DNA of 30,626 bases from a virus. Its lineage: Duplodnaviria; Caudoviricetes. The notes under the pieces were generated by a model that ran no database searches, was not told the origin of the DNA, and was given only the letters and a program-made list of their open reading frames with translations. Shown one piece after another: positions 1 through 29,638 of the stretch. Numbering within the stretch: position 1 is the first letter of the stretch; each line of letters starts with the position of its first letter. Position numbers and translations under genes: made by a program. The DNA is taken from IMG/VR virus record IMGVR_UViG_3300031519_003965, positions 1 through 30,626 of that record; one strand, 5' to 3'.

Positions 1-72
1 GCTGATGACTTTGCTAACGAATATGCTGTGAAATGCTTTAAGCAGTATAAATGGCTATGGAGAGGAAAATGA
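1..72 (+). CDS. 3' end of an upstream gene (partial, unknown product)
   Basis: Frame 1 is open from base 1 (ADDFANEYAVKCFKQYKWLWRGK) to TGA at 70-72, which overlaps the next ATG at 69 (ATGA coupling). Confidence 0.55.
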   Translation, partial: ADDFANEYAVKCFKQYKWLWRGK

Positions 73-782
73 AAAACTATAAATTAATAACGCTTCTTGC
101 AGTTTTCTCTGTAGGAATTTGGTCAGCAGATAACGAAATATATATAGATCAATCAGGAGCAACAGCAAACATAGACCTAGAACAACTAGGATCTGGAAAC
201 CTTATAGGCGGATTACTAGCCATAGCAGGTCAAATGACCGCAGCTGATTTTGACGGCGGAAACCTTACCTTAGATGTAAACCAAATTGGTAATACTAACA
301 AGTTCCTAGCAGACGTATACGCAGACTCACTTACAGCCTTCTTTGAATTTGATGGTGACAGCAATAACTATACCCTGACAATAGATCCAGATAATACTTT
401 TGGTGCAGATGGCTCAGACTTAAACGTGGTTGCCACTGGATCGTCTAATACATTTACCCTAGACCTAGGAACAACAGGCTTGGCATCTAACACAGACCTT
501 GACTGGATCATTAACGGCGACAGCAATACTTTTGATTTTGATATAAACTATGATGGTGCTACCAACTATGTAGATGTTGATGGCAACAGTAACAACGTAA
601 ACTTTACAGGAAGTGGATATGCAGGTGGGTACTTCTATCTCGACCAAACAGGAAATAGTAGAACATTCAATATCATCCAGTCTTCAACTCTTGCTTCTGA
701 TTGGCTACAGATTAACTCTACTGGCTCTAATGGTACTATCTGTGTCGTTCAAAACGATGGCGGAACCACAACAAGCTGTTGA
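69..782 (+). CDS. Secreted curlin-like (CsgA/CsgB-like) beta-solenoid repeat protein
   Basis: Start at ATG 69 (GGAGAGG upstream) is better than 51. Sec-type signal MKNYKLITLLAVFSVGIWS. Repeated beta-strand + (Q)xGxxN units (EQLGSGN, NQIGNTN, DGDSN, TGSSN, NGDSN, DGNSN, DQTGNSR); rich in G/N/D/S/T; C-terminal Cys pair. Confidence 0.75.
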   Translation: MKNYKLITLLAVFSVGIWSADNEIYIDQSGATANIDLEQLGSGNLIGGLLAIAGQMTAADFDGGNLTLDVNQIGNTNKFLADVYADSLTAFFEFDGDSNNYTLTIDPDNTFGADGSDLNVVATGSSNTFTLDLGTTGLASNTDLDWIINGDSNTFDFDINYDGATNYVDVDGNSNNVNFTGSGYAGGYFYLDQTGNSRTFNIIQSSTLASDWLQINSTGSNGTICVVQNDGGTTTSC

Positions 783-1809
783 AGTAGGAAACATATCTGA
801 GCTTAATGGCTCGGCACAAATTGTAAGAGATAAGTCCTATGAGGCTACAGAGTCTTTTGATATACAACAAAATGACGAGGCTGTTACGTCAAATGGTCGT
901 ATGGCTATTACGTTCTTAGATGACTCCCAAGTAAAACTAACAGAACATTCTCAACTTATAATAGATGAATATATCTATGACCCAGATCCATCTAAGTCAA
1001 AGATGGCTCTTACCTTCGGTCTTGGTACTGCTAGGTTTATAACTGGTGGTCTAAACAAGATAGACAAAAACAATATAGATCTTAAGACACCTACGGCAAA
1101 CATAGCAATACGCGGAACTGACTTTACGGTAACGGTGGACGAGACAGGCAGGTCGCTTTTGATTCTGTTACCAGATGAGTTTGGTGTATCTTCTGGGGAA
1201 ATACTTGTAACCACAGCTATGGGTACAGTTACCCTAAACAAACCATACCAAGCTACAACTGTAGATGTCTTTGAGAAAGCTCCAAGCAAACCAGTTATCC
1301 TAGATCTAACCTTAGACCTTATAGACAACATGCTAATCGTCAGCCCTCCTAAAGAAGAGTTGGTTATAGAAGAGGTTATACAAACTAAAAAGAAAAACAT
1401 ACTAGACTTCGATGGTCTTGACGAAGACTTCTTAGAAGAAGACTTTTTAAAAGAAGATGAACTAGAATTTAATGAACTGGATATTAACTACTTAGACGTT
1501 AATTTCTTAGAGGACTTGCTTGATGTTATAGATGCGTTAGGCGAAATAAACGAAGAAGATCAGTTGGCTCAAGATGCAACATCCACCAATATAACAGGCA
1601 CTAAGATGGGTCAAGATCTGGGAACTCAGATAACCACATTCCTGACTGGTCAAACATTAACCCTACTAAGAAGCGTAAGCGATACAGCTAGAGTAGATAT
1701 AGATGGTGCCGGGTCTTACACTGTTATCTTTATACAGGACGGAACCTCAAACATTATTAAAGTAAATGGTGGTAACGGTAGCACTATAAAAATAACCCAG
1801 AGTAATTAA
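613..1809 (+). CDS. FecR-domain periplasmic protein with acidic linker and C-terminal curlin-like strands (start uncertain: 613/619/730)
   Basis: FecR-type motifs VTSNGRMAITFLDDSQVKLTEHSQLII and LKTPTANIAIRGTDFTVTV. Hydrophobic N-terminal segment LQLLLLIGYRLTLLALMVLSVSF. Stop overlaps next ATG (TAATG). Confidence 0.8.
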   Translation: MDMQVGTSISTKQEIVEHSISSSLQLLLLIGYRLTLLALMVLSVSFKTMAEPQQAVEVGNISELNGSAQIVRDKSYEATESFDIQQNDEAVTSNGRMAITFLDDSQVKLTEHSQLIIDEYIYDPDPSKSKMALTFGLGTARFITGGLNKIDKNNIDLKTPTANIAIRGTDFTVTVDETGRSLLILLPDEFGVSSGEILVTTAMGTVTLNKPYQATTVDVFEKAPSKPVILDLTLDLIDNMLIVSPPKEELVIEEVIQTKKKNILDFDGLDEDFLEEDFLKEDELEFNELDINYLDVNFLEDLLDVIDALGEINEEDQLAQDATSTNITGTKMGQDLGTQITTFLTGQTLTLLRSVSDTARVDIDGAGSYTVIFIQDGTSNIIKVNGGNGSTIKITQSN

Positions 1810-3563
1810 TGAACAAGCTATTATTACCTATACTTATAATACTAGGACTCCCCCTAGTCTTTCAAAGTACCCCTACAGAAATACTTAAACTAAAGATATT
1901 TGATGCCTTGGTAGAAATTCCAGAGGAATCCGGGAACTTTGTTATTTTAAATATAGAGGAATCTGATATAGACAGGGAGGGTGGATATCCTATACCTAGG
2001 CAAAGACTTGGCGAGATACATAGAGAGATAATTGCTAAGGGGGCTATAGGGGTTGGATGGGTTATTTCTTTTCCCCACCCTGATCGTTTCGGGGGAGATA
2101 AATATTTTGCAGACTCTCTTCAACAAGGTACATCTATTTTGGCAATGTTTGAAGCCCCAAATCAAATATACCCAAAAACAGTTGGCACGGTGATACAAGG
2201 ACCAAACATCGGTGGTATGGTATCCAAGGGTGTAGTACAGAATACTTACAACCTTAGAAACAAATATATACAAGAAGGTATATCTGCTGCACCCACCGAC
2301 ATTGACAATCTAGTCAGAAGAATGCCATTACTATTAAAGACCCCAGACGGATATGTAAGCTCGTTTGGTATAGAAGTATTAAAAAGCTTGGTTGGAGCAA
2401 GAACCTATATTATTAAAACAAACGAAAATGGTATAGAGCAGATTGCAGTCAGGGGACTGCCACCAATTCCAACAGATAGTTTTGGTCGTAAATGGATATC
2501 ATGGGTAGATACCCCCCAAACAAATTTAAAAGACATGGATGTTAAAAATAGATTTGTTTTTGTCGGCATTACTGCCCCCGGAATCATGCCACAAGTTGCA
2601 ACTCCAGTTGGATTATTAGAGCCACATAAAATTCAAGCAGCACTATCTGAGTCAATCCTTATTGAAAACTCTCCAATGATCCCAGATTATGCCTTGGCGT
2701 TAGAAATTTTAATTTTTGGAATTTTTGTGTCTCTGACATGGCTTGTAATTAATTATCTTGGTATAACTAAGGGCATAAGTATAGCTATAGCATTACTCTT
2801 TACCACGGGCTTCTTAGGAGCCTACAGTATACATAGGGGTTTTTTAGTAGACTTTTCATGGACTTTTATCTCACAATGCGTAGTTTCTGGTATTGCCTTC
2901 TATTTAAACTTCAGGAAACAGTTTAAACTCCGACAACAGGTCAAGAAACAGTTTGAACATTACCTTGATCCAAGACAAGTTAGGCAATTACAAGATAACC
3001 CGGAGATGTTAAAATTAGGAGGAGAAAAAAGATACGCAACATTTCTCTTCACAGACGTAAGAGGCTTCACATCCTTATCAGAAAAATTGGAACCAGAAGA
3101 AGTAACCGAGATAATGAATAAGGTTCTTACCATTCAGTCAGATACTGTAAAGTTTTATGATGGAATGGTAGATAAATATATTGGCGATGCAATGATGGCA
3201 ATCTTTAATGCACCTTTAGACTTAGAGGGTCATGAAGAAGCAGCCGTCTTATGTGCCAAGGAAATACAAGACAAAGTACAACTATCTGGATTGGGTCTTG
3301 AGATAGGCGTTGGGGTCGCTACAGGATTCGCGGTGATTGGAAATATGGGGAGCTCAACTAGGTTTGATTACACAGCTATTGGTGATTGTGTAAATACCGC
3401 AGCAAGGCTTGAATCAGCCACTAAAGAGGTTGGCGTAGATATATTGATTGGAGAAGAGACTGCCAAAAAGTGCGGTTTTGAGTTAAAATTATTAGAACCA
3501 ATTAAAGTTAAGGGTAAAGAGAAGCCCTTGCAAATTTACACTATCAATCATGATAGAGGATAG
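1809..3563 (+). CDS. CHASE2-domain membrane adenylate cyclase (class III, IIIb-type)
   Basis: N-terminal TM, CHASE2-like periplasmic region (VILNIEESDI..GYPIPRQ, DIDNLVRRMPL, FVFVGITAPG..TPVG), three TM helices, then cyclase motifs FTDVRGFT, VDKYIGDAMMAIF, IGVGVATG..IGNMGS, DYTAIGDCVNTAARLES and IKVKGK. Confidence 0.93.
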   Translation: MNKLLLPILIILGLPLVFQSTPTEILKLKIFDALVEIPEESGNFVILNIEESDIDREGGYPIPRQRLGEIHREIIAKGAIGVGWVISFPHPDRFGGDKYFADSLQQGTSILAMFEAPNQIYPKTVGTVIQGPNIGGMVSKGVVQNTYNLRNKYIQEGISAAPTDIDNLVRRMPLLLKTPDGYVSSFGIEVLKSLVGARTYIIKTNENGIEQIAVRGLPPIPTDSFGRKWISWVDTPQTNLKDMDVKNRFVFVGITAPGIMPQVATPVGLLEPHKIQAALSESILIENSPMIPDYALALEILIFGIFVSLTWLVINYLGITKGISIAIALLFTTGFLGAYSIHRGFLVDFSWTFISQCVVSGIAFYLNFRKQFKLRQQVKKQFEHYLDPRQVRQLQDNPEMLKLGGEKRYATFLFTDVRGFTSLSEKLEPEEVTEIMNKVLTIQSDTVKFYDGMVDKYIGDAMMAIFNAPLDLEGHEEAAVLCAKEIQDKVQLSGLGLEIGVGVATGFAVIGNMGSSTRFDYTAIGDCVNTAARLESATKEVGVDILIGEETAKKCGFELKLLEPIKVKGKEKPLQIYTINHDRG

Positions 3564-3568
3564 AATAA

Positions 3569-4054
3569 ATGAAGTTCGGATTAATTAAAAATTTAGTAGG
3601 TGCTGTAGCTCCAACACTTGGATCAGCATTAGCAGGACCCCTTGGAGGTCAGGCGGCATCGGTAATAGCAAATGTTTTAGGATGCCAGTCAGACGCAAAG
3701 TCTATTAATAAAGCAATACAAAGTGCAACCCCGGAGCAAATGCTAGAACTTAAAAAAGCAGAGCAACAATTTGAGGTTCAAATGAAAGAGCTGGATGTTG
3801 ATATATTTTCTTTAGAGACGGCAGACAAGCAAGATGCTCGTGGTAGATTCAGTAAAGACTGGACAGCTCGTATCATAGGTGTTGTAGTAGTAGGCGGATT
3901 CATGGGATATATCTTTCTTGTAACCTTGCAGCCCCCAGAACAGAACTCTGAAGCTTTAATCAATTTAGTTTTGGGATATCTAGGAGGATTGGCTAGTGCT
4001 GTGATATCTTTTTATTTTGGTGCGTCACATTCGCCAGATAAAGAAAAGGATTAA
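3569..4054 (+). CDS. Putative holin (3TM/GTA-holin-like membrane protein)
   Basis: Gly/Ala-rich N-terminus APTLGSALAGPLGG, charged middle with DKQDAR, two C-terminal TM segments ending ISFYFGAS; pattern typical of phage 3TM holin-like proteins. Confidence 0.65.
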   Translation: MKFGLIKNLVGAVAPTLGSALAGPLGGQAASVIANVLGCQSDAKSINKAIQSATPEQMLELKKAEQQFEVQMKELDVDIFSLETADKQDARGRFSKDWTARIIGVVVVGGFMGYIFLVTLQPPEQNSEALINLVLGYLGGLASAVISFYFGASHSPDKEKD

Positions 4055-5740: not shown

Positions 5741-8142
5741 TGGGAACGCCCAAGGGAAACTTTGTAGTCCCAAGAAATTTTGACCCAGAGCAGAAAAGAT
5801 TTGCCCAGTCATTAAATGAATCTGTTGCTGTACTCAGGGGAGAACTTGGAGATCCACTCGATGCTGCGGTTACTTATAATGATTTAATAGACTCTGGTAT
5901 TGCTAAGAGGGATCTTAGAATTGGAAGCGGTGGATTTATAGGAGGACCGGGAAGGGTTATTATTATCCCCGGAGACGGAACTGTCCTAGATATACCGCCA
6001 GCACCAACAGGTGTTGAGGTAAGTGGTGCATTTCAAAATATACTTATTACATGGGATGCTGCCACATTTGTTGGATTTTCTTATGCTGAAATATGGACTG
6101 CAACCTCCAACACATTTGCTGACAGGGTTTTGGTTGGAACATCTACCGCCTCAGTATTCTCGCATCAGGTGGGCAACGGACAAACAAGATACTATTGGAT
6201 TCGTTTTGTTAATATACAGGGCGTAATAGGACCCTTTAATTCAACAACAGGTATAGGCGACAGCACGGTTATTGATATTGGTGCACAGATGGCATTGCTT
6301 TCAGAGGGTCTCCAAAACCTGCCCGGGTATGCTGCTCTTACTACACTAATTACAAATGCGGACGTAGCTGTTGCTGCCACAGCAGCAGTTGCAGCCAGAG
6401 TAATAAGAAGTAGCGGGGCACCTACAACCAGAGAAGACAGCTCTGCCTTAACGGTAAATGATATTTGGTTTGATACAGATGATGGTCAGGTCTACACAAG
6501 AAATGCAGCCAACAATGATTGGGTAGCAGGACGAGACGCTACTTTAGTTAGTGTATTTGGTGCCACTAGTTTTACAGGAAGTACACTCACGGGGGCTATG
6601 GCTGCCGCACAATCAGATATTGTTACAGTTACTAATGCACAAAGCTCTACTGCATCTTCTTTAACAAGTTTGACTTCAACTGTTGGAACTAATACATCAG
6701 CAATATCTACAGAGCAGACTACCAGAGCAGATGCAGACACGGCTCTTGCTACGGCAATAACAAATCTAACAGCTTCAGTTAATACTAATACAGCAGGAAT
6801 AAGCACTGAACAAACTGCCAGAGCAGATGCTGATACAGCCTTGGCAACAGATATAACAAATCTAACAGCTTCAGTTAATACTAATACAGCAGGAATAAGC
6901 ACTGAACAAACTGCCAGAGCAGATGCTGATACAGCCTTGGCAACAGATATAACAAATCTAACCGTTACAGTTGGAACCAATGCAGCATCCATATCTACCG
7001 AAGCTACAGCTAGAGCAGATGCTGATACAGCCAATGCATTAGCTATAACCAACCTAACATCTACCGTTGGAGATGCAAACGCAAGCATTACATCACTACA
7101 AACAGTTACTACAAACTTATCAAATGATGCTAGTGCGGCATACGTTCTTCAGGTAAATGCAAATGGATCTGTTGCTGGTATGGTTATTGAAGCAAACGCT
7201 TCTGATGCTGGTGACAATAGTGGGTCGGCAATTCAGTTTGTTTCTGATAAATTTGCAATTTGGAATGGGACTAGTGGGACTGCTCCATTTATAGTTTCTG
7301 GTGGCACGGTGTTCATAGCAAACGCAATGATAGAAAATGGTGCTATAACCAACGCAAAGATACAAGACGCGACAATTGATAATGCAAAAATAACTGCGAC
7401 ACTAGATGCAGCTAAAATAACAGCAGGAACCATATCAACTGATAGGTTAGATGCCTCTGTTATTGTTGCAACAGACCTTTCAGCAAACACATCCACTGTT
7501 ATACATGGTGGAAATATAACAACTGGAACAATATCAGCCAATCGTTTGGATACCTCTGTTATTGTTGCAACAGACCTTTCAACCAATACCTCGACTGTTA
7601 TACATGGCGGAAATATAAGCACCAATACAATTACAGCAGATAAAATAAATGTTACTAACTTGGCTTTAGACTATACAGCCGCGACTGTTTCAGGATCTAC
7701 TATAGGAGGGTTTGCAAACAACCAAATGAGGCTTCATCTAGTTGCTGAACTTGGAACCGAGCCGGGCTTGTACCATATATTTTGTCGAGTCTTTGGCGGA
7801 ACTGGTCAGGTTAAAACTCTGTCTATTGTTGCGGGTGATGGCACTTGGGGATCAGGATCTAGTTTTCAATTAAGAAGCGATTTTGCATATCAGGATGGTC
7901 CATCACCCACAATACCAACACTAGATCAAGGTTATGCTCAATATCATTCAGGGCAAACTCAATATTGGTCAGCCATTAATAGGTTTGATAGTAGTTACGA
8001 AATGGTTCAAAAAGATTTTATTGTTAGAAAGGTAAGCAGTACAAGTAGCACATTAAGACTATTCGTTCTTGGACAGGGAGACAATGGAACCAGATACTTA
8101 TCCAATGTTCAATACGGGTTCTATAAATTCTCGGAGATATAA
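5740..8142 (+). CDS. Central tail fibre / host-specificity protein (FN3 + coiled-coil repeats + DUF1983-like)
   Basis: FN3-like PPAPTGVEVSGAFQNILITWD...TRYYWIRFVN; 32-aa EQTARADADTALA repeats; J-like AYVLQVNANGSVAGM...DKFAI..PFIV.GGTVFI.NAMIENGAITNAKI; distinct C-terminal head region. Confidence 0.8.
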   Translation: MGTPKGNFVVPRNFDPEQKRFAQSLNESVAVLRGELGDPLDAAVTYNDLIDSGIAKRDLRIGSGGFIGGPGRVIIIPGDGTVLDIPPAPTGVEVSGAFQNILITWDAATFVGFSYAEIWTATSNTFADRVLVGTSTASVFSHQVGNGQTRYYWIRFVNIQGVIGPFNSTTGIGDSTVIDIGAQMALLSEGLQNLPGYAALTTLITNADVAVAATAAVAARVIRSSGAPTTREDSSALTVNDIWFDTDDGQVYTRNAANNDWVAGRDATLVSVFGATSFTGSTLTGAMAAAQSDIVTVTNAQSSTASSLTSLTSTVGTNTSAISTEQTTRADADTALATAITNLTASVNTNTAGISTEQTARADADTALATDITNLTASVNTNTAGISTEQTARADADTALATDITNLTVTVGTNAASISTEATARADADTANALAITNLTSTVGDANASITSLQTVTTNLSNDASAAYVLQVNANGSVAGMVIEANASDAGDNSGSAIQFVSDKFAIWNGTSGTAPFIVSGGTVFIANAMIENGAITNAKIQDATIDNAKITATLDAAKITAGTISTDRLDASVIVATDLSANTSTVIHGGNITTGTISANRLDTSVIVATDLSTNTSTVIHGGNISTNTITADKINVTNLALDYTAATVSGSTIGGFANNQMRLHLVAELGTEPGLYHIFCRVFGGTGQVKTLSIVAGDGTWGSGSSFQLRSDFAYQDGPSPTIPTLDQGYAQYHSGQTQYWSAINRFDSSYEMVQKDFIVRKVSSTSSTLRLFVLGQGDNGTRYLSNVQYGFYKFSEI
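6757..6962 (+). repeat. Perfect 96-bp tandem duplication within the tail fibre gene (part of about 4 degenerate 32-aa units, ~6706-7090)
   Basis: 6757-6852 is identical to 6853-6948, and the first 14 nt recur at 6949-6962. Confidence 0.95.
7426..7625 (+). repeat. Degenerate 99-bp (33-aa) tandem repeat in the tail fibre gene
   Basis: cctctgttattgttgcaacagacctttca at 7454 and 7553; protein (A/T)SVIVATDLS.NTSTVIHGGNI occurs twice. Confidence 0.9.
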
Positions 8143-17375: not shown

Positions 17376-17433
17376 TAGGTACATACTAAGTCGGGGGGAA
17401 ATATGACAAAACCCATAAGCCCTGCTGTAAATA

Positions 17434-18234
17434 CTAGGATATCAGACTATTACTAACCTCACAAGCATCGCTCAAATAATCCTTTGATAGATGTGCATAC
17501 CTGTTTACTATATTAAAATCAGACCACCCACCAAGATGTTGTAACGTGTGCAGCGGAGTTCCATTTTGCACATGATGGGTAGCCCAAGTGTGACGTATGT
17601 CATGCCATCTAAATCCCTCTAGGTTGGCTTTCTTTAAAGCGGTATACCAACCAGTGTTAGACGCTCTGGTAATTCTTCTTCCCGCATAGGTGAAAACATA
17701 AGGACTAACTTTTTCAATTGAATCTAGGAGCTCTCTGCATTTAATGTTTAATGGAACACAAAGACTTCTGCCGTTTTTAGTTTCAGATCCATCAATGGCT
17801 ATCTGGTTTTCCATTATATCAACCCACTTAAGATTGAAGCAGTTGGACATCCTAACCCCTGTAAGGAGGGAGAATATAAAAGGTTTCTGCAAGTGTAGGG
17901 GGAGCTCATTATGCAGTTTCTTTATATCATCCAAAGAAAAGTATTTGACTCTTAATGAATCTTCTTTTACTTTCTTTATTACAGGCTTGGCATCCAACCA
18001 CCCCAATTCTTCGTAGGCATACATAAGTATTGCCCTGAAGTAGTTTAAATATCTATTGACAGTTCCGGGCTTGCCTTTAATCTTAGACCTAACCATCGCG
18101 ATATGTTCTTTTTTTATATCTTTTAAATCCATGCCCTCAAAGAAGGGATCAAAAAATTTTCTAAAGGTAAAATCATTCTTACCCATGTGACTGAATTTAT
18201 AGTATTCAGTAACTGCTTCTTTCCATGTATTCAT
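17434..18234 (-). CDS. int: Tyrosine recombinase / integrase (short, 266 aa)
   Basis: Catalytic set TGVRMSN (R), ETKNG (K), HDIRHTWAT (HxxR), LGGW (W) and RYAH (Y); core-binding motif PGTVNRYL..RAI. Confidence 0.92.
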   Translation of the reverse strand: MNTWKEAVTEYYKFSHMGKNDFTFRKFFDPFFEGMDLKDIKKEHIAMVRSKIKGKPGTVNRYLNYFRAILMYAYEELGWLDAKPVIKKVKEDSLRVKYFSLDDIKKLHNELPLHLQKPFIFSLLTGVRMSNCFNLKWVDIMENQIAIDGSETKNGRSLCVPLNIKCRELLDSIEKVSPYVFTYAGRRITRASNTGWYTALKKANLEGFRWHDIRHTWATHHVQNGTPLHTLQHLGGWSDFNIVNRYAHLSKDYLSDACEVSNSLIS

Positions 18235-28099: not shown

Positions 28100-28553
28100 G
28101 ACTAGGGTCTGTAGGTCTTGTGATAAACGCAAGGCGATCACTCGCTACGAATTAAAGAACAATCGTTGGAGATCAAGGGAATGTATGGACTGCCGTTCCG
28201 CGGGGAGAAGAAAAAGACTCAGCAACAGTCCGCATCTATATATAAGCAACCTATACACTCATTTATCACATAGACGAAAAGCAACCCACGTCTTTAATAT
28301 AACAAGGGAATACCTTTATAAGTTATACGATAAACAAAAAGGAATCTGTGAATACAGTGGAGTACCTATGACGAATGTTAAGGATGGAACCGGGTATCAT
28401 TTAAAAAACATTTCAATAGACCGCATTGACAACACTAAGGGTTACGAGGAGGGTAACATTGCCCTAGTGTGTCTAGCAGTAAACATGATGAAATACACTT
28501 TGGATCTTAAAGACCTTGTTGCTTGGTGCAACGAGATATCTAAAAACAATTAG
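28044..28553 (+). CDS. Zn-finger + HNH-like endonuclease
   Basis: N-terminal CRSC...CMDC; C-terminal Q.GICEYSG..M...ISIDRIDNTKGYEEGNI.LVC..VN.MK. Confidence 0.75.
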   Translation: MSKVSKSQLKTQPHTTGHKTRVCRSCDKRKAITRYELKNNRWRSRECMDCRSAGRRKRLSNSPHLYISNLYTHLSHRRKATHVFNITREYLYKLYDKQKGICEYSGVPMTNVKDGTGYHLKNISIDRIDNTKGYEEGNIALVCLAVNMMKYTLDLKDLVAWCNEISKNN

Positions 28554-29638
28554 GCTTCCATATTCCCAAGGATGTGTGCGATTACTTCAATAGTCCATCC
28601 ATTGCCTAAAAGTTTATATTTTTGCGTGTTACTAACAGGCATAAGATAATCATCTTGAACTGTTTGCAATCTCATACATTCTAAAGGCGTTAGCTTTCTC
28701 CAATAAACATCATCCTTAACTAACACATTATCCTTTTGAACTGTTGATATGTTATTTGTTTTGTCGTCCCTTCTCAGTTCAAGCATCTGTGTAGACTTTC
28801 CTGCAATAGAACCCTTGTGGTCTTGTCGTACTCCATCCACCTTATACCTTCCAACATATCTGCCACAAATCACCTTGGGTTCTCTATTGCCACCTTGACA
28901 AGTGTTTACTGTTGGAGACTTTCCGTCTGGGCTATAGACCCTCTTCAAAATATCATGACCATTGACATCAACAGCAGTTCCTATTTGTTGTGGAACTAAA
29001 GTCATTCCATTGTTCCCTGCCCCCTTATACATGGTGGCGGTCATGCACAAAGACTTATCACCTAATTTTTTAAGATGTCTTGCGTTCCTTTCTGTTCTCT
29101 TTACAGGTTTGTGTTCTCCTGTGTCGCCCTCTAGGATATCTCTTAGAACAATTCCCCTTTCTTGTGGAAGTTCCACATTAGGAATATTAGTCCAATAATA
29201 TCTTTGCCTCGACTGTGCAGAGACAAGCGAACTATTTATAAAGAGGGGTTCTACTCCCATGTATTCAGAGATAACATCTAGGTACTCCTTTTTCATTCTT
29301 ACATTTTCAAGTAAGAAGTATTTAGGTTTTAATGTCTCAACACATTTAACAAACTCAAAAAATAACATGGATCTGGGGTCGTCAAAGGCTAGTTGTTTCC
29401 CTGCAAAACTGAATCCTTGACATGGAGAGCCTCCCATTATTAGATCAATCTTTGGTAAGGTTGAGAGATCGAGCTTTGTAATGTCCCCAACTTGAATAAT
29501 TTCCGGGTAGTTAGCCTTGCTTACTTCAATGGCATATTTATCTATCTCACTTGCATAATAGTTATCTACTTTAATACCTAAGCGGTCTAGGGCTATCCTT
29601 CCACAACTCATTCCATCAAATAAACTTAATACATTCAT
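28550..29638 (-). CDS. DNA (cytosine-5)-methyltransferase
   Basis: Motif I SLFDGMSCG, IV GGSPCQGFS, VI LLENV, VIII QSRQRYYW, IX RKLTPLECMRLQ and X LGNGW. Confidence 0.95.
   Translation of the reverse strand: MNVLSLFDGMSCGRIALDRLGIKVDNYYASEIDKYAIEVSKANYPEIIQVGDITKLDLSTLPKIDLIMGGSPCQGFSFAGKQLAFDDPRSMLFFEFVKCVETLKPKYFLLENVRMKKEYLDVISEYMGVEPLFINSSLVSAQSRQRYYWTNIPNVELPQERGIVLRDILEGDTGEHKPVKRTERNARHLKKLGDKSLCMTATMYKGAGNNGMTLVPQQIGTAVDVNGHDILKRVYSPDGKSPTVNTCQGGNREPKVICGRYVGRYKVDGVRQDHKGSIAGKSTQMLELRRDDKTNNISTVQKDNVLVKDDVYWRKLTPLECMRLQTVQDDYLMPVSNTQKYKLLGNGWTIEVIAHILGNMEA

Follow-up and report, generated by a model that had tools for sequence, protein, structure and literature searches.

The three module genes and the viral curli module

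The window analysed here is a whole virus contig of 30,626 bp (IMG/VR record IMGVR_UViG_3300031519_003965; completeness estimate 59%), whose 5' end carries a curlin-like gene, a FecR-domain gene and a gene for a CHASE2 receptor cyclase, predicted to make cyclic AMP (cAMP). Three open reading frames (ORFs) on the plus strand were confirmed, at 69-782, ending at 1809, and at 1809-3563, and Pfam searches bore out the domains named in a preliminary description of this DNA: FecR (PF04773, E 8e-10), CHASE2 (E 2e-26) and Guanylate_cyc (E 6e-18). The translational coupling described there holds for TAATG at 1807-1811, which joins the FecR stop to the cyclase start, and for the curlin and FecR genes, which overlap by 53-170 nt depending on the start chosen; the ATGA at 69-72, however, ties the curlin-like gene to a fourth gene upstream.

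69..782, plus strand: curlin-like beta-solenoid protein, 237 amino acids (predicted fold, transitive homology)
691..1809, plus strand: FecR-domain protein; start uncertain (GTG at 613, TTG at 691 or CTG at 697, ATG at 730)
865..1341, plus strand: FecR domain of predicted PupR-type fold (residues 36-194 counted from base 760)
1114..1119, plus strand: Gly-Thr of the RGTDF motif, predicted self-cleavage site, at the position where FecR and FoxR self-cleave
1351..1575, plus strand: conserved acidic stretch (37% Asp + Glu, five-residue Leu-Asp/Glu rhythm), of low confidence in the model
1582..1806, plus strand: C-terminal beta-rich domain of the FecR protein, from the model; family not assigned
1809..3563, plus strand: putative inner-membrane receptor cyclase, 584 amino acids (Pfam CHASE2 and Guanylate_cyc)

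Judged by sequence, the three genes make up the 3' half of the viral type VIII secretion system (T8SS, or curli) module CsgF-CsgG-curlin-FecR-cyclase. The combination is not novel, having been published in 2022: according to PMC9599517, nine HTVC023P-type genomes as well as pelagimyophages carry CsgF, CsgG, CsgA/B, FecR and adenylate cyclase, in some cases with a second curlin, and an earlier account is found in PMC7029224. The cultured carriers HTVC008M (gp014-019) and Melnitz (gp99-104) have the same order; the window cyclase is 32-34% identical to theirs, and profiles matched all six genes. The upstream csgG and csgF to which the preliminary description had pointed are cut off in the window and present in a complete relative with terminal repeats (G405, 52,282 bp), as well as in contigs L156 and L157. 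G405 is syntenic with the window, shares proteins that are mostly 75-90% identical, and holds the full six-gene module between tail-fibre genes and a holin-like gene.

The expectation that these genes co-occur in a conserved neighbourhood was borne out in 153 viral loci from IMG/VR. Cyclase and curlin each served as a query, the best 80 of about 597 loci were taken for each, and at least four contigs came up in duplicate. Among scorable genes CsgG preceded the curlin in 112 of 113 cases, FecR followed the curlin in 121/121, and the cyclase followed FecR in 128/129. A further 80 loci fetched with the HTVC008M FecR (L364-L443) showed the same order plus a variable gene of about 111-507 amino acids before the cyclase. 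The order recurs in myophages at about 33% identity, and CsgF, the fibre-anchoring partner, is always retained with the module. Retention of the six genes as a unit across lineages this distant speaks for a single function. The gene preceding csgF in most loci (93-116 amino acids; L450:10189-10539, cluster c3) appears to be the 'histidine kinase' of PMC9599517. It had no kinase match in Pfam or NCBIfam and looks like a membrane helix followed by a coiled coil, doubled in myophages.

The curlin-like protein has a signal peptide of 20 residues, predicted by inspection, and is acidic (29 Asp + Glu vs 2 Lys + Arg), with two invariant C-terminal cysteines that could cap it. Its AlphaFold model is all beta (pLDDT, the predicted local confidence score, 85) and superposes on CsgA 8C50 with Z 15.5 (root-mean-square deviation, rmsd, 9.2; 191 aligned residues, 19% identity), tied with SufB/D-type solenoids. 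The family profile matches HTVC008M gp016 (E 1e-24) and gp018 (E 7e-9), the latter containing Curlin_rpt and PA14. Of the QxGxxN beta-solenoid described earlier, the CsgA-like solenoid thus stands in the model, but only two exact QxGxxN motifs are present and Pfam Curlin_rpt gave no match to the window protein at E<=1; Foldseek with the model returned no match at E<=0.001. Because the assignment comes from predicted fold and transitive homology, we call the protein curlin-like rather than a Pfam curlin. In myophage modules the variable slot between FecR and cyclase (about 111-507 amino acids) is filled in HTVC008M by gp018, with its PA14 domain and curlin repeats, which suggests exchangeable surface-binding tips.

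The FecR protein consists of a leader, the FecR domain, the acidic stretch and the C-terminal beta domain. Its hydrophobic N-terminal leader is likely a Sec signal and is encoded within the end of the curlin gene in 38/38 aligned relatives. Although the model of the protein is weak (mean pLDDT 52, about 65 in the FecR-domain part), the FecR domain superposes on PupR 6OVM_R with Z 16.9 (rmsd 2.3, 135 aligned), unrelated folds reaching 6.3. The match covers PupR residues 111-265 only, without the C-terminal subdomain; this part of PupR beyond the match binds the TonB-dependent transducer. GTDF is kept in 168/168 distinct FecR ORFs. From the Pfam domain and the known motif, we take the phage Gly-Thr to be the position equivalent to the known cleavage site, and self-cleavage is predicted there. 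In E. coli, according to PMC12036975, FecR cleaves itself at Gly181-Thr182 and the halves stay together until a signal parts them. The acidic stretch may bind cations or thread the pore. For the C-terminal domain, an Atlas search with residues 198-349 gave no usable match and the FecR alignment, run against the sequences of solved structures, gave 0 matches at E<=1; a role as a fibre-joining curlin repeat was rejected (profile-profile probability 1%, no solenoid in the model). A cytoplasmic anti-sigma domain is absent from the protein, its hydrophobic segment lying at the very N-terminus, and neither an extracytoplasmic function (ECF) sigma factor nor a TonB-dependent receptor partner was found in the window or in G405.

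The cyclase comprises an N-terminal helix, CHASE2 (residues 14-306), a membrane segment and a class III catalytic domain (410-579). Its catalytic motifs are intact, as described before: D416, K456, D460, R533 and K570 are kept in 65/65 aligned cyclases and N529 in 64/65. Position 522 is Ser or Thr in 64/65, and K456 together with T522 makes the window enzyme adenine-type. Among solved structures this enzyme is nearest to CyaB/CyaC-type adenylate cyclases, all catalytic positions aligning with theirs (CyaB 3R5G), and the enzyme is predicted to be ATP-specific and to make cAMP. A Pycsar assignment was rejected: PycC profiles match the shared catalytic fold only, the residues are adenine-type and nearer CyaB/CyaC, and the neighbouring genes lack a PADLOC model match. 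The earlier statement that the window encodes no cAMP effector was upheld and extended, PF00027 being absent from the window and from five carrier records, four of them at least 90% complete, in a search whose control fired in 11-12 of 14 genomes. As no cyclic nucleotide-binding domain was present in the genomes searched, the cAMP target would be a host protein. Divergence of the catalytic domain was nearly uncoupled from that of CHASE2 and FecR (rho about 0.2; non-myophage rows, 3010-3550), which suggests frequent recombination within the cyclase gene.

A possible surface-to-cAMP relay and its alternatives

We tentatively read the module as a relay from the cell surface to cAMP, leading from a CsgFG-curlin structure to a host target, and hold this to be possible, somewhat short of probable. 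Gene content and order, domains, catalytic residues and phage context are observed at the locus. The relay adds to them localisations, ATP specificity, self-cleavage and a FecR-CHASE2 partnership that are transferred from known families. The curlin-like protein would leave the cell through the CsgF/CsgG pore and be retained at the surface; the periplasmic, putatively self-cleaving FecR protein would pass a change at this structure to CHASE2, and the cyclase would make cAMP acting on a host protein. The output would most likely tune late infection, for example lysis timing; cue and output are both speculative.

The relay is favoured because FecR-domain genes beside CHASE2 receptors are a known bacterial pairing. 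Such genes are described as clustering in Burkholderiales and Campylobacterota, and Sinorhizobium CHASE2 cyclases, as reported in PMC13001267, are switched on through an outer-membrane protein. Among the bacterial loci analysed here, one had the arrangement FecR-OmpA-CHASE2 cyclase (L279) and another CHASE2-SpoIIE/TPR/FecR (L280). In a Deferribacterales genome (L161:29-5655) a CsgG-family gene and then an FlgT_N gene directly precede a CHASE2-type cyclase, an arrangement in which the CsgG-cyclase link may have its cellular counterpart. Since the PupR-like match is partial and no anti-sigma or sigma partner is present, the cyclase would be the natural partner of the FecR protein.

The position of the module also bears on its output. 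It is followed in the window by a putative lysis gene:

3569..4054, plus strand: holin-like membrane protein with two hydrophobic helices (context gene, called from these and its position)

Helices and position support the holin named in the preliminary description, but no library gave it that name; its identity with GTA_holin_3TM was rejected (profile comparison probability 0.3%). The holin-like cluster adjoins a lysozyme gene in 43/64 cases. Library-named lysis genes lie within 1.2 kb downstream of the module in 98 of 122 loci, or 115 of 122 when the holin-like cluster is included, clusters being named from one representative each. That lysis genes follow the module therefore points to late expression.

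Several observations weigh against the relay. Among the closest bacterial relatives the pairing of FecR and CHASE2 is loose: only 2/78 bacterial cyclase loci, two phage-like contigs being excluded, have a FecR-like gene nearby, and 2 of the 20 best FecR-like loci have a CHASE2 gene nearby. The Sinorhizobium FecR-domain gene smc02177 is, according to PMC5498481, dispensable for signal perception, and Wittmers et al. (PMC9599517) describe FecR and cyclase as not always present. FecR and CHASE2 divergence correlated at rho 0.74 in non-myophage but 0.38 in myophage loci, and linkage alone can explain such values; as a test of co-adaptation the domain-distance correlation was discarded, having given opposite results in the two clades. 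Finally, in the two annotated myophage genomes viewed, lysis genes do not adjoin the module.

Roles in sibling capture, uptake or lysis have been proposed for the module (PMC7029224, PMC9004378). The best surviving alternative, which we consider rather unlikely, is that curli-like fibres aggregate cells, thereby capturing siblings, or shield them from other phages, FecR and cyclase only regulating expression through host cAMP (Wittmers 2022; Zaragoza-Solas 2020). The modelled match of the solenoid to CsgA and the constant presence of CsgF agree with fibres, as does HTVC008M gp018, which joins a sugar-binding PA14 domain to curlin repeats in a slot of varying length. Nevertheless, PMC9004378 reports that Melnitz infections showed no clumping; the curlin is strongly acidic and without a Curlin_rpt match, its cysteine pair could end the solenoid, and a membrane receptor cyclase exceeds the needs of expression control. 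Fibres and relay are compatible with each other. The earlier suggestion that the curlin fold acts as sensor or scaffold rather than as biofilm amyloid is not supported, CsgF being retained and the myophage version having a second curlin with a sugar-binding PA14 domain.

Less likely still is that the pore is a lysis device, a gated secretin or pinholin analogue (Buchholz 2022), gated by the other genes. This has been suggested in PMC9004378 and would suit the location of the module within the lysis cluster in most non-myophage loci. Against it, holin, lysozyme or M15 peptidase, and spanin genes are already found beside the module, and the CHASE2 cyclase would be left without a role. CsgG forms its pore in the outer membrane, where depolarisation of the inner membrane would not be expected of it. 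Import of a nutrient or iron carrier through the pore, reported by FecR, is improbable: the name FecR and the lack of CsgE, which could leave the pore open (as discussed in PMC9599517), speak for it, but the PupR fold match stops short of the transducer-binding part, no TonB-dependent receptor or sigma factor is encoded, and the curlin is left unexplained.

Phage carriage, the 338-bp insert and site avoidance

An origin of the segment as host DNA flanking a prophage, or through mis-assembly, can be practically dismissed, as the preliminary description of phage-borne genes implied: although the module lies at the contig end and the first 125 bases have no match to G405, the complete relative carries the same module in the same place, public-run contigs span the cyclase and the downstream gene, the odd 5' end is a real insert found in other phages, and the closest bacterial cyclases, two short phage-like contigs aside, are only 27-45% identical. 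Three short contigs in bacterial metagenome-assembled genomes (L158, L159, L240; titles Parvibaculum, Vicingus) carry a module 67-70% identical with phage genes adjoining, and are probably mis-binned phage DNA rather than host evidence.

1..72, plus strand: 3' end (23 codons) of a phrog_2315 passenger gene, its stop overlapping the curlin start in ATGA (69-72)
1..134, plus strand: 3' part of the 338-bp insert, ending at the Ala-Asp-Asn codons (positions 126-134) and holding a replacement curlin start and signal peptide
17434..18234, minus strand: tyrosine integrase (library match; context gene)

The backbone encodes this integrase, RecE/ERF, an O-like initiator, DnaB and short-tail-type virion genes. 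The integrase was found in 5/5 related records at 79-83%, and the phage is likely temperate on this ground. The nearest cultured matches are 30-39% identical; by sequence this is an integrase-bearing lineage without a close cultured relative, seen in 19/153 module loci. A quick tree was built from 65 cyclases: the window's and those of 64 locus pairs, left from 134 once near-copies were removed. In it the eight rows of this backbone require five changes, at least four of them forced by well-supported branches. Because of these changes we conclude from the tree that the module moved repeatedly between backbones.

The first bases of the window belong to an insert that recurs in L156:1396-1754 and, approximately and on the minus strand, L157:3190-3550, with one mismatch to L156 over window positions 1-136 and one to L157 over 1-143. 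These are unlike phages: beside the insert, their CsgG, curlin and FecR proteins show only 57-72% identity. Both contain the whole passenger gene, and in them a copy of the Ala-Asp-Asn codons stands on either side of the 338-bp segment. A 92-amino-acid two-cysteine protein there starts with the signal peptide of the resident curlin, and the segment gives the curlin a new start and signal. G405 lacks the insert, its match to the window beginning at base 126. Reading bases 1-72 as the end of csgG was rejected, as no similarity appeared in any frame.

The passenger occurs at 91-100% identity in five protein clusters (73 member sequences), with eight different leader ends among 29 sequences retrieved. 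It belongs to phrog_2315, a family of 253 distant clusters, with 52/52 aligned relatives matching and two invariant cysteines. A search of solved structures gave 0 significant matches, and the context of relatives in three cultured phages was uninformative. In public runs, several different sequences flank the insert contig, and exactly 338 bases are skipped by one contig (depth 3, short side of 23 bases); in run X7 the insert contig had a depth of 66 vs 260-290 for the module. These observations suggest a mixed population, which probably explains why the window contig ends there. The insert is uncommon, being seen in two IMG/VR contigs, with CsgG abutting the curlin in 181/184 scored cases. 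Neither a transposase nor any repeat beyond the short duplicated motif was found at it, and spread by recombination appears the probable route. As an optional passenger, the insert draws on the module for translation start and signal peptide; the module itself does without it.

A fuller scenario joins these elements: a curlin antenna in the CsgG pore, a self-cleaved FecR that parts on engagement by a neighbouring cell or second phage, CHASE2-made cAMP that sets lysis timing or the lysis-lysogeny choice, and a plug-in slot at the curlin start that spreads a near-identical passenger between unrelated phages by borrowing resident signal peptides. As a whole we consider it doubtful.

CCWGG is absent from the window against about 27 expected, and GGCC and GCGC are likewise absent. 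Within the module, CCWGG numbers 0 vs 2.9 in codon shuffles (P 0.02), and the three sites together 0 vs 10.1. G405 is likewise free of GGCC and GCGC, yet it contains 49 CCWGG sites; 20/20 aligned sites, four of them in the module, are altered in the window. The triple avoidance is common to L157 and five loci of another backbone. Thus the module does share the CCWGG avoidance noted before, but the long residence read from it goes too far, given the 49 sites in G405 and the avoidance by unrelated backbones. Since the complete relative still has its sites, the loss is recent; on these counts, the sites were purged from module and backbone together, in a host pool that is shared. Loss by methyl-cytosine deamination is not favoured, 10 of the 20 aligned sites differing only by a middle-base substitution. 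A predicted C5 DNA methyltransferase gene (28550-29638, minus strand) is absent from G405 and lies in this window without any CCWGG.

Further scans of the window gave 0 Rfam or tRNA matches and no excess of promoters or terminators over shuffles. With regard to a Pelagibacter host, as for the published pelagiphages, neither a tRNA nor a host match was obtained, and G+C is 36-43%. Tandem repeats of 96 and 99 bp lie within the tail-fibre gene (6688-7071 and 7414-7618), and the gap between a large virion gene and the integrase end (17376-17433), with a run of seven G, is a candidate attachment site for which a tRNA match was not found.

Relation to known systems

With the viral T8SS module of HTVC023P-type podophages and pelagimyophages the present one shares set and order: small membrane gene, CsgF, CsgG, curlin, FecR and cyclase. 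It differs in its backbone of integrase, O-like initiator, DnaB and RecE/ERF, in lacking a second curlin between FecR and cyclase, and in the passenger gene before the curlin. In common with the Sinorhizobium meliloti pathway NsrA-CyaD1/CyaD2/CyaK-Clr, as far as described, it has a CHASE2 class III receptor cyclase driven, in our reading, from the outer membrane; that pathway includes a FecR-domain gene within its regulon, whereas the phage lacks an NsrA-like barrel and a CRP-type regulator, and its outer-membrane part would be CsgFG plus curlin.

The FecR fold and Gly-Thr motif are shared with the anti-sigma factors FecR, FoxR and PupR. The phage protein lacks their cytoplasmic anti-sigma domain, a match to the C-terminal subdomain, the sigma factor and the TonB-dependent receptor, and in their place has the acidic stretch and a C-terminal domain of another kind. 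Bacterial curli (CsgA/B/F/G) share the solenoid fold, the signal peptide and, in relatives of the window, CsgF and CsgG, whereas the phage has no CsgE, C or D, and its curlin, known here from sequence and model, does not match Curlin_rpt. The passenger agrees with other phrog_2315 proteins, which are small and secreted, in family and in its two invariant cysteines, but here carries the signal peptide of the resident curlin and none of its own origin.

The gene block itself is not a discovery, being already in print; the window adds a further member, from a lineage outside the searched main text of PMC9599517, in which CHASE, integrase, temperate, holin and signal peptide are not mentioned. Added here are the CHASE2 sensor with ATP-type residues, the self-cleavage motif, the PupR-type fold, the position by the lysis genes, the integrase lineage and the insert. 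Our literature searches, none aimed specifically at such inserts, met no precedent for one that borrows a signal peptide, a minor but neat mode of gene spread. In an ocean survey about 0.1% of the assembled viral proteins belonged to the module (PMC9599517). The relay can be tested by simple assays, given the ATP-type CHASE2 cyclase, the predicted self-cleavage site and a compact module that lacks the second curlin. If it is true, phages equip streamlined bacteria with a surface sensor whose output is a second messenger, which would represent a novel means of timing infection.

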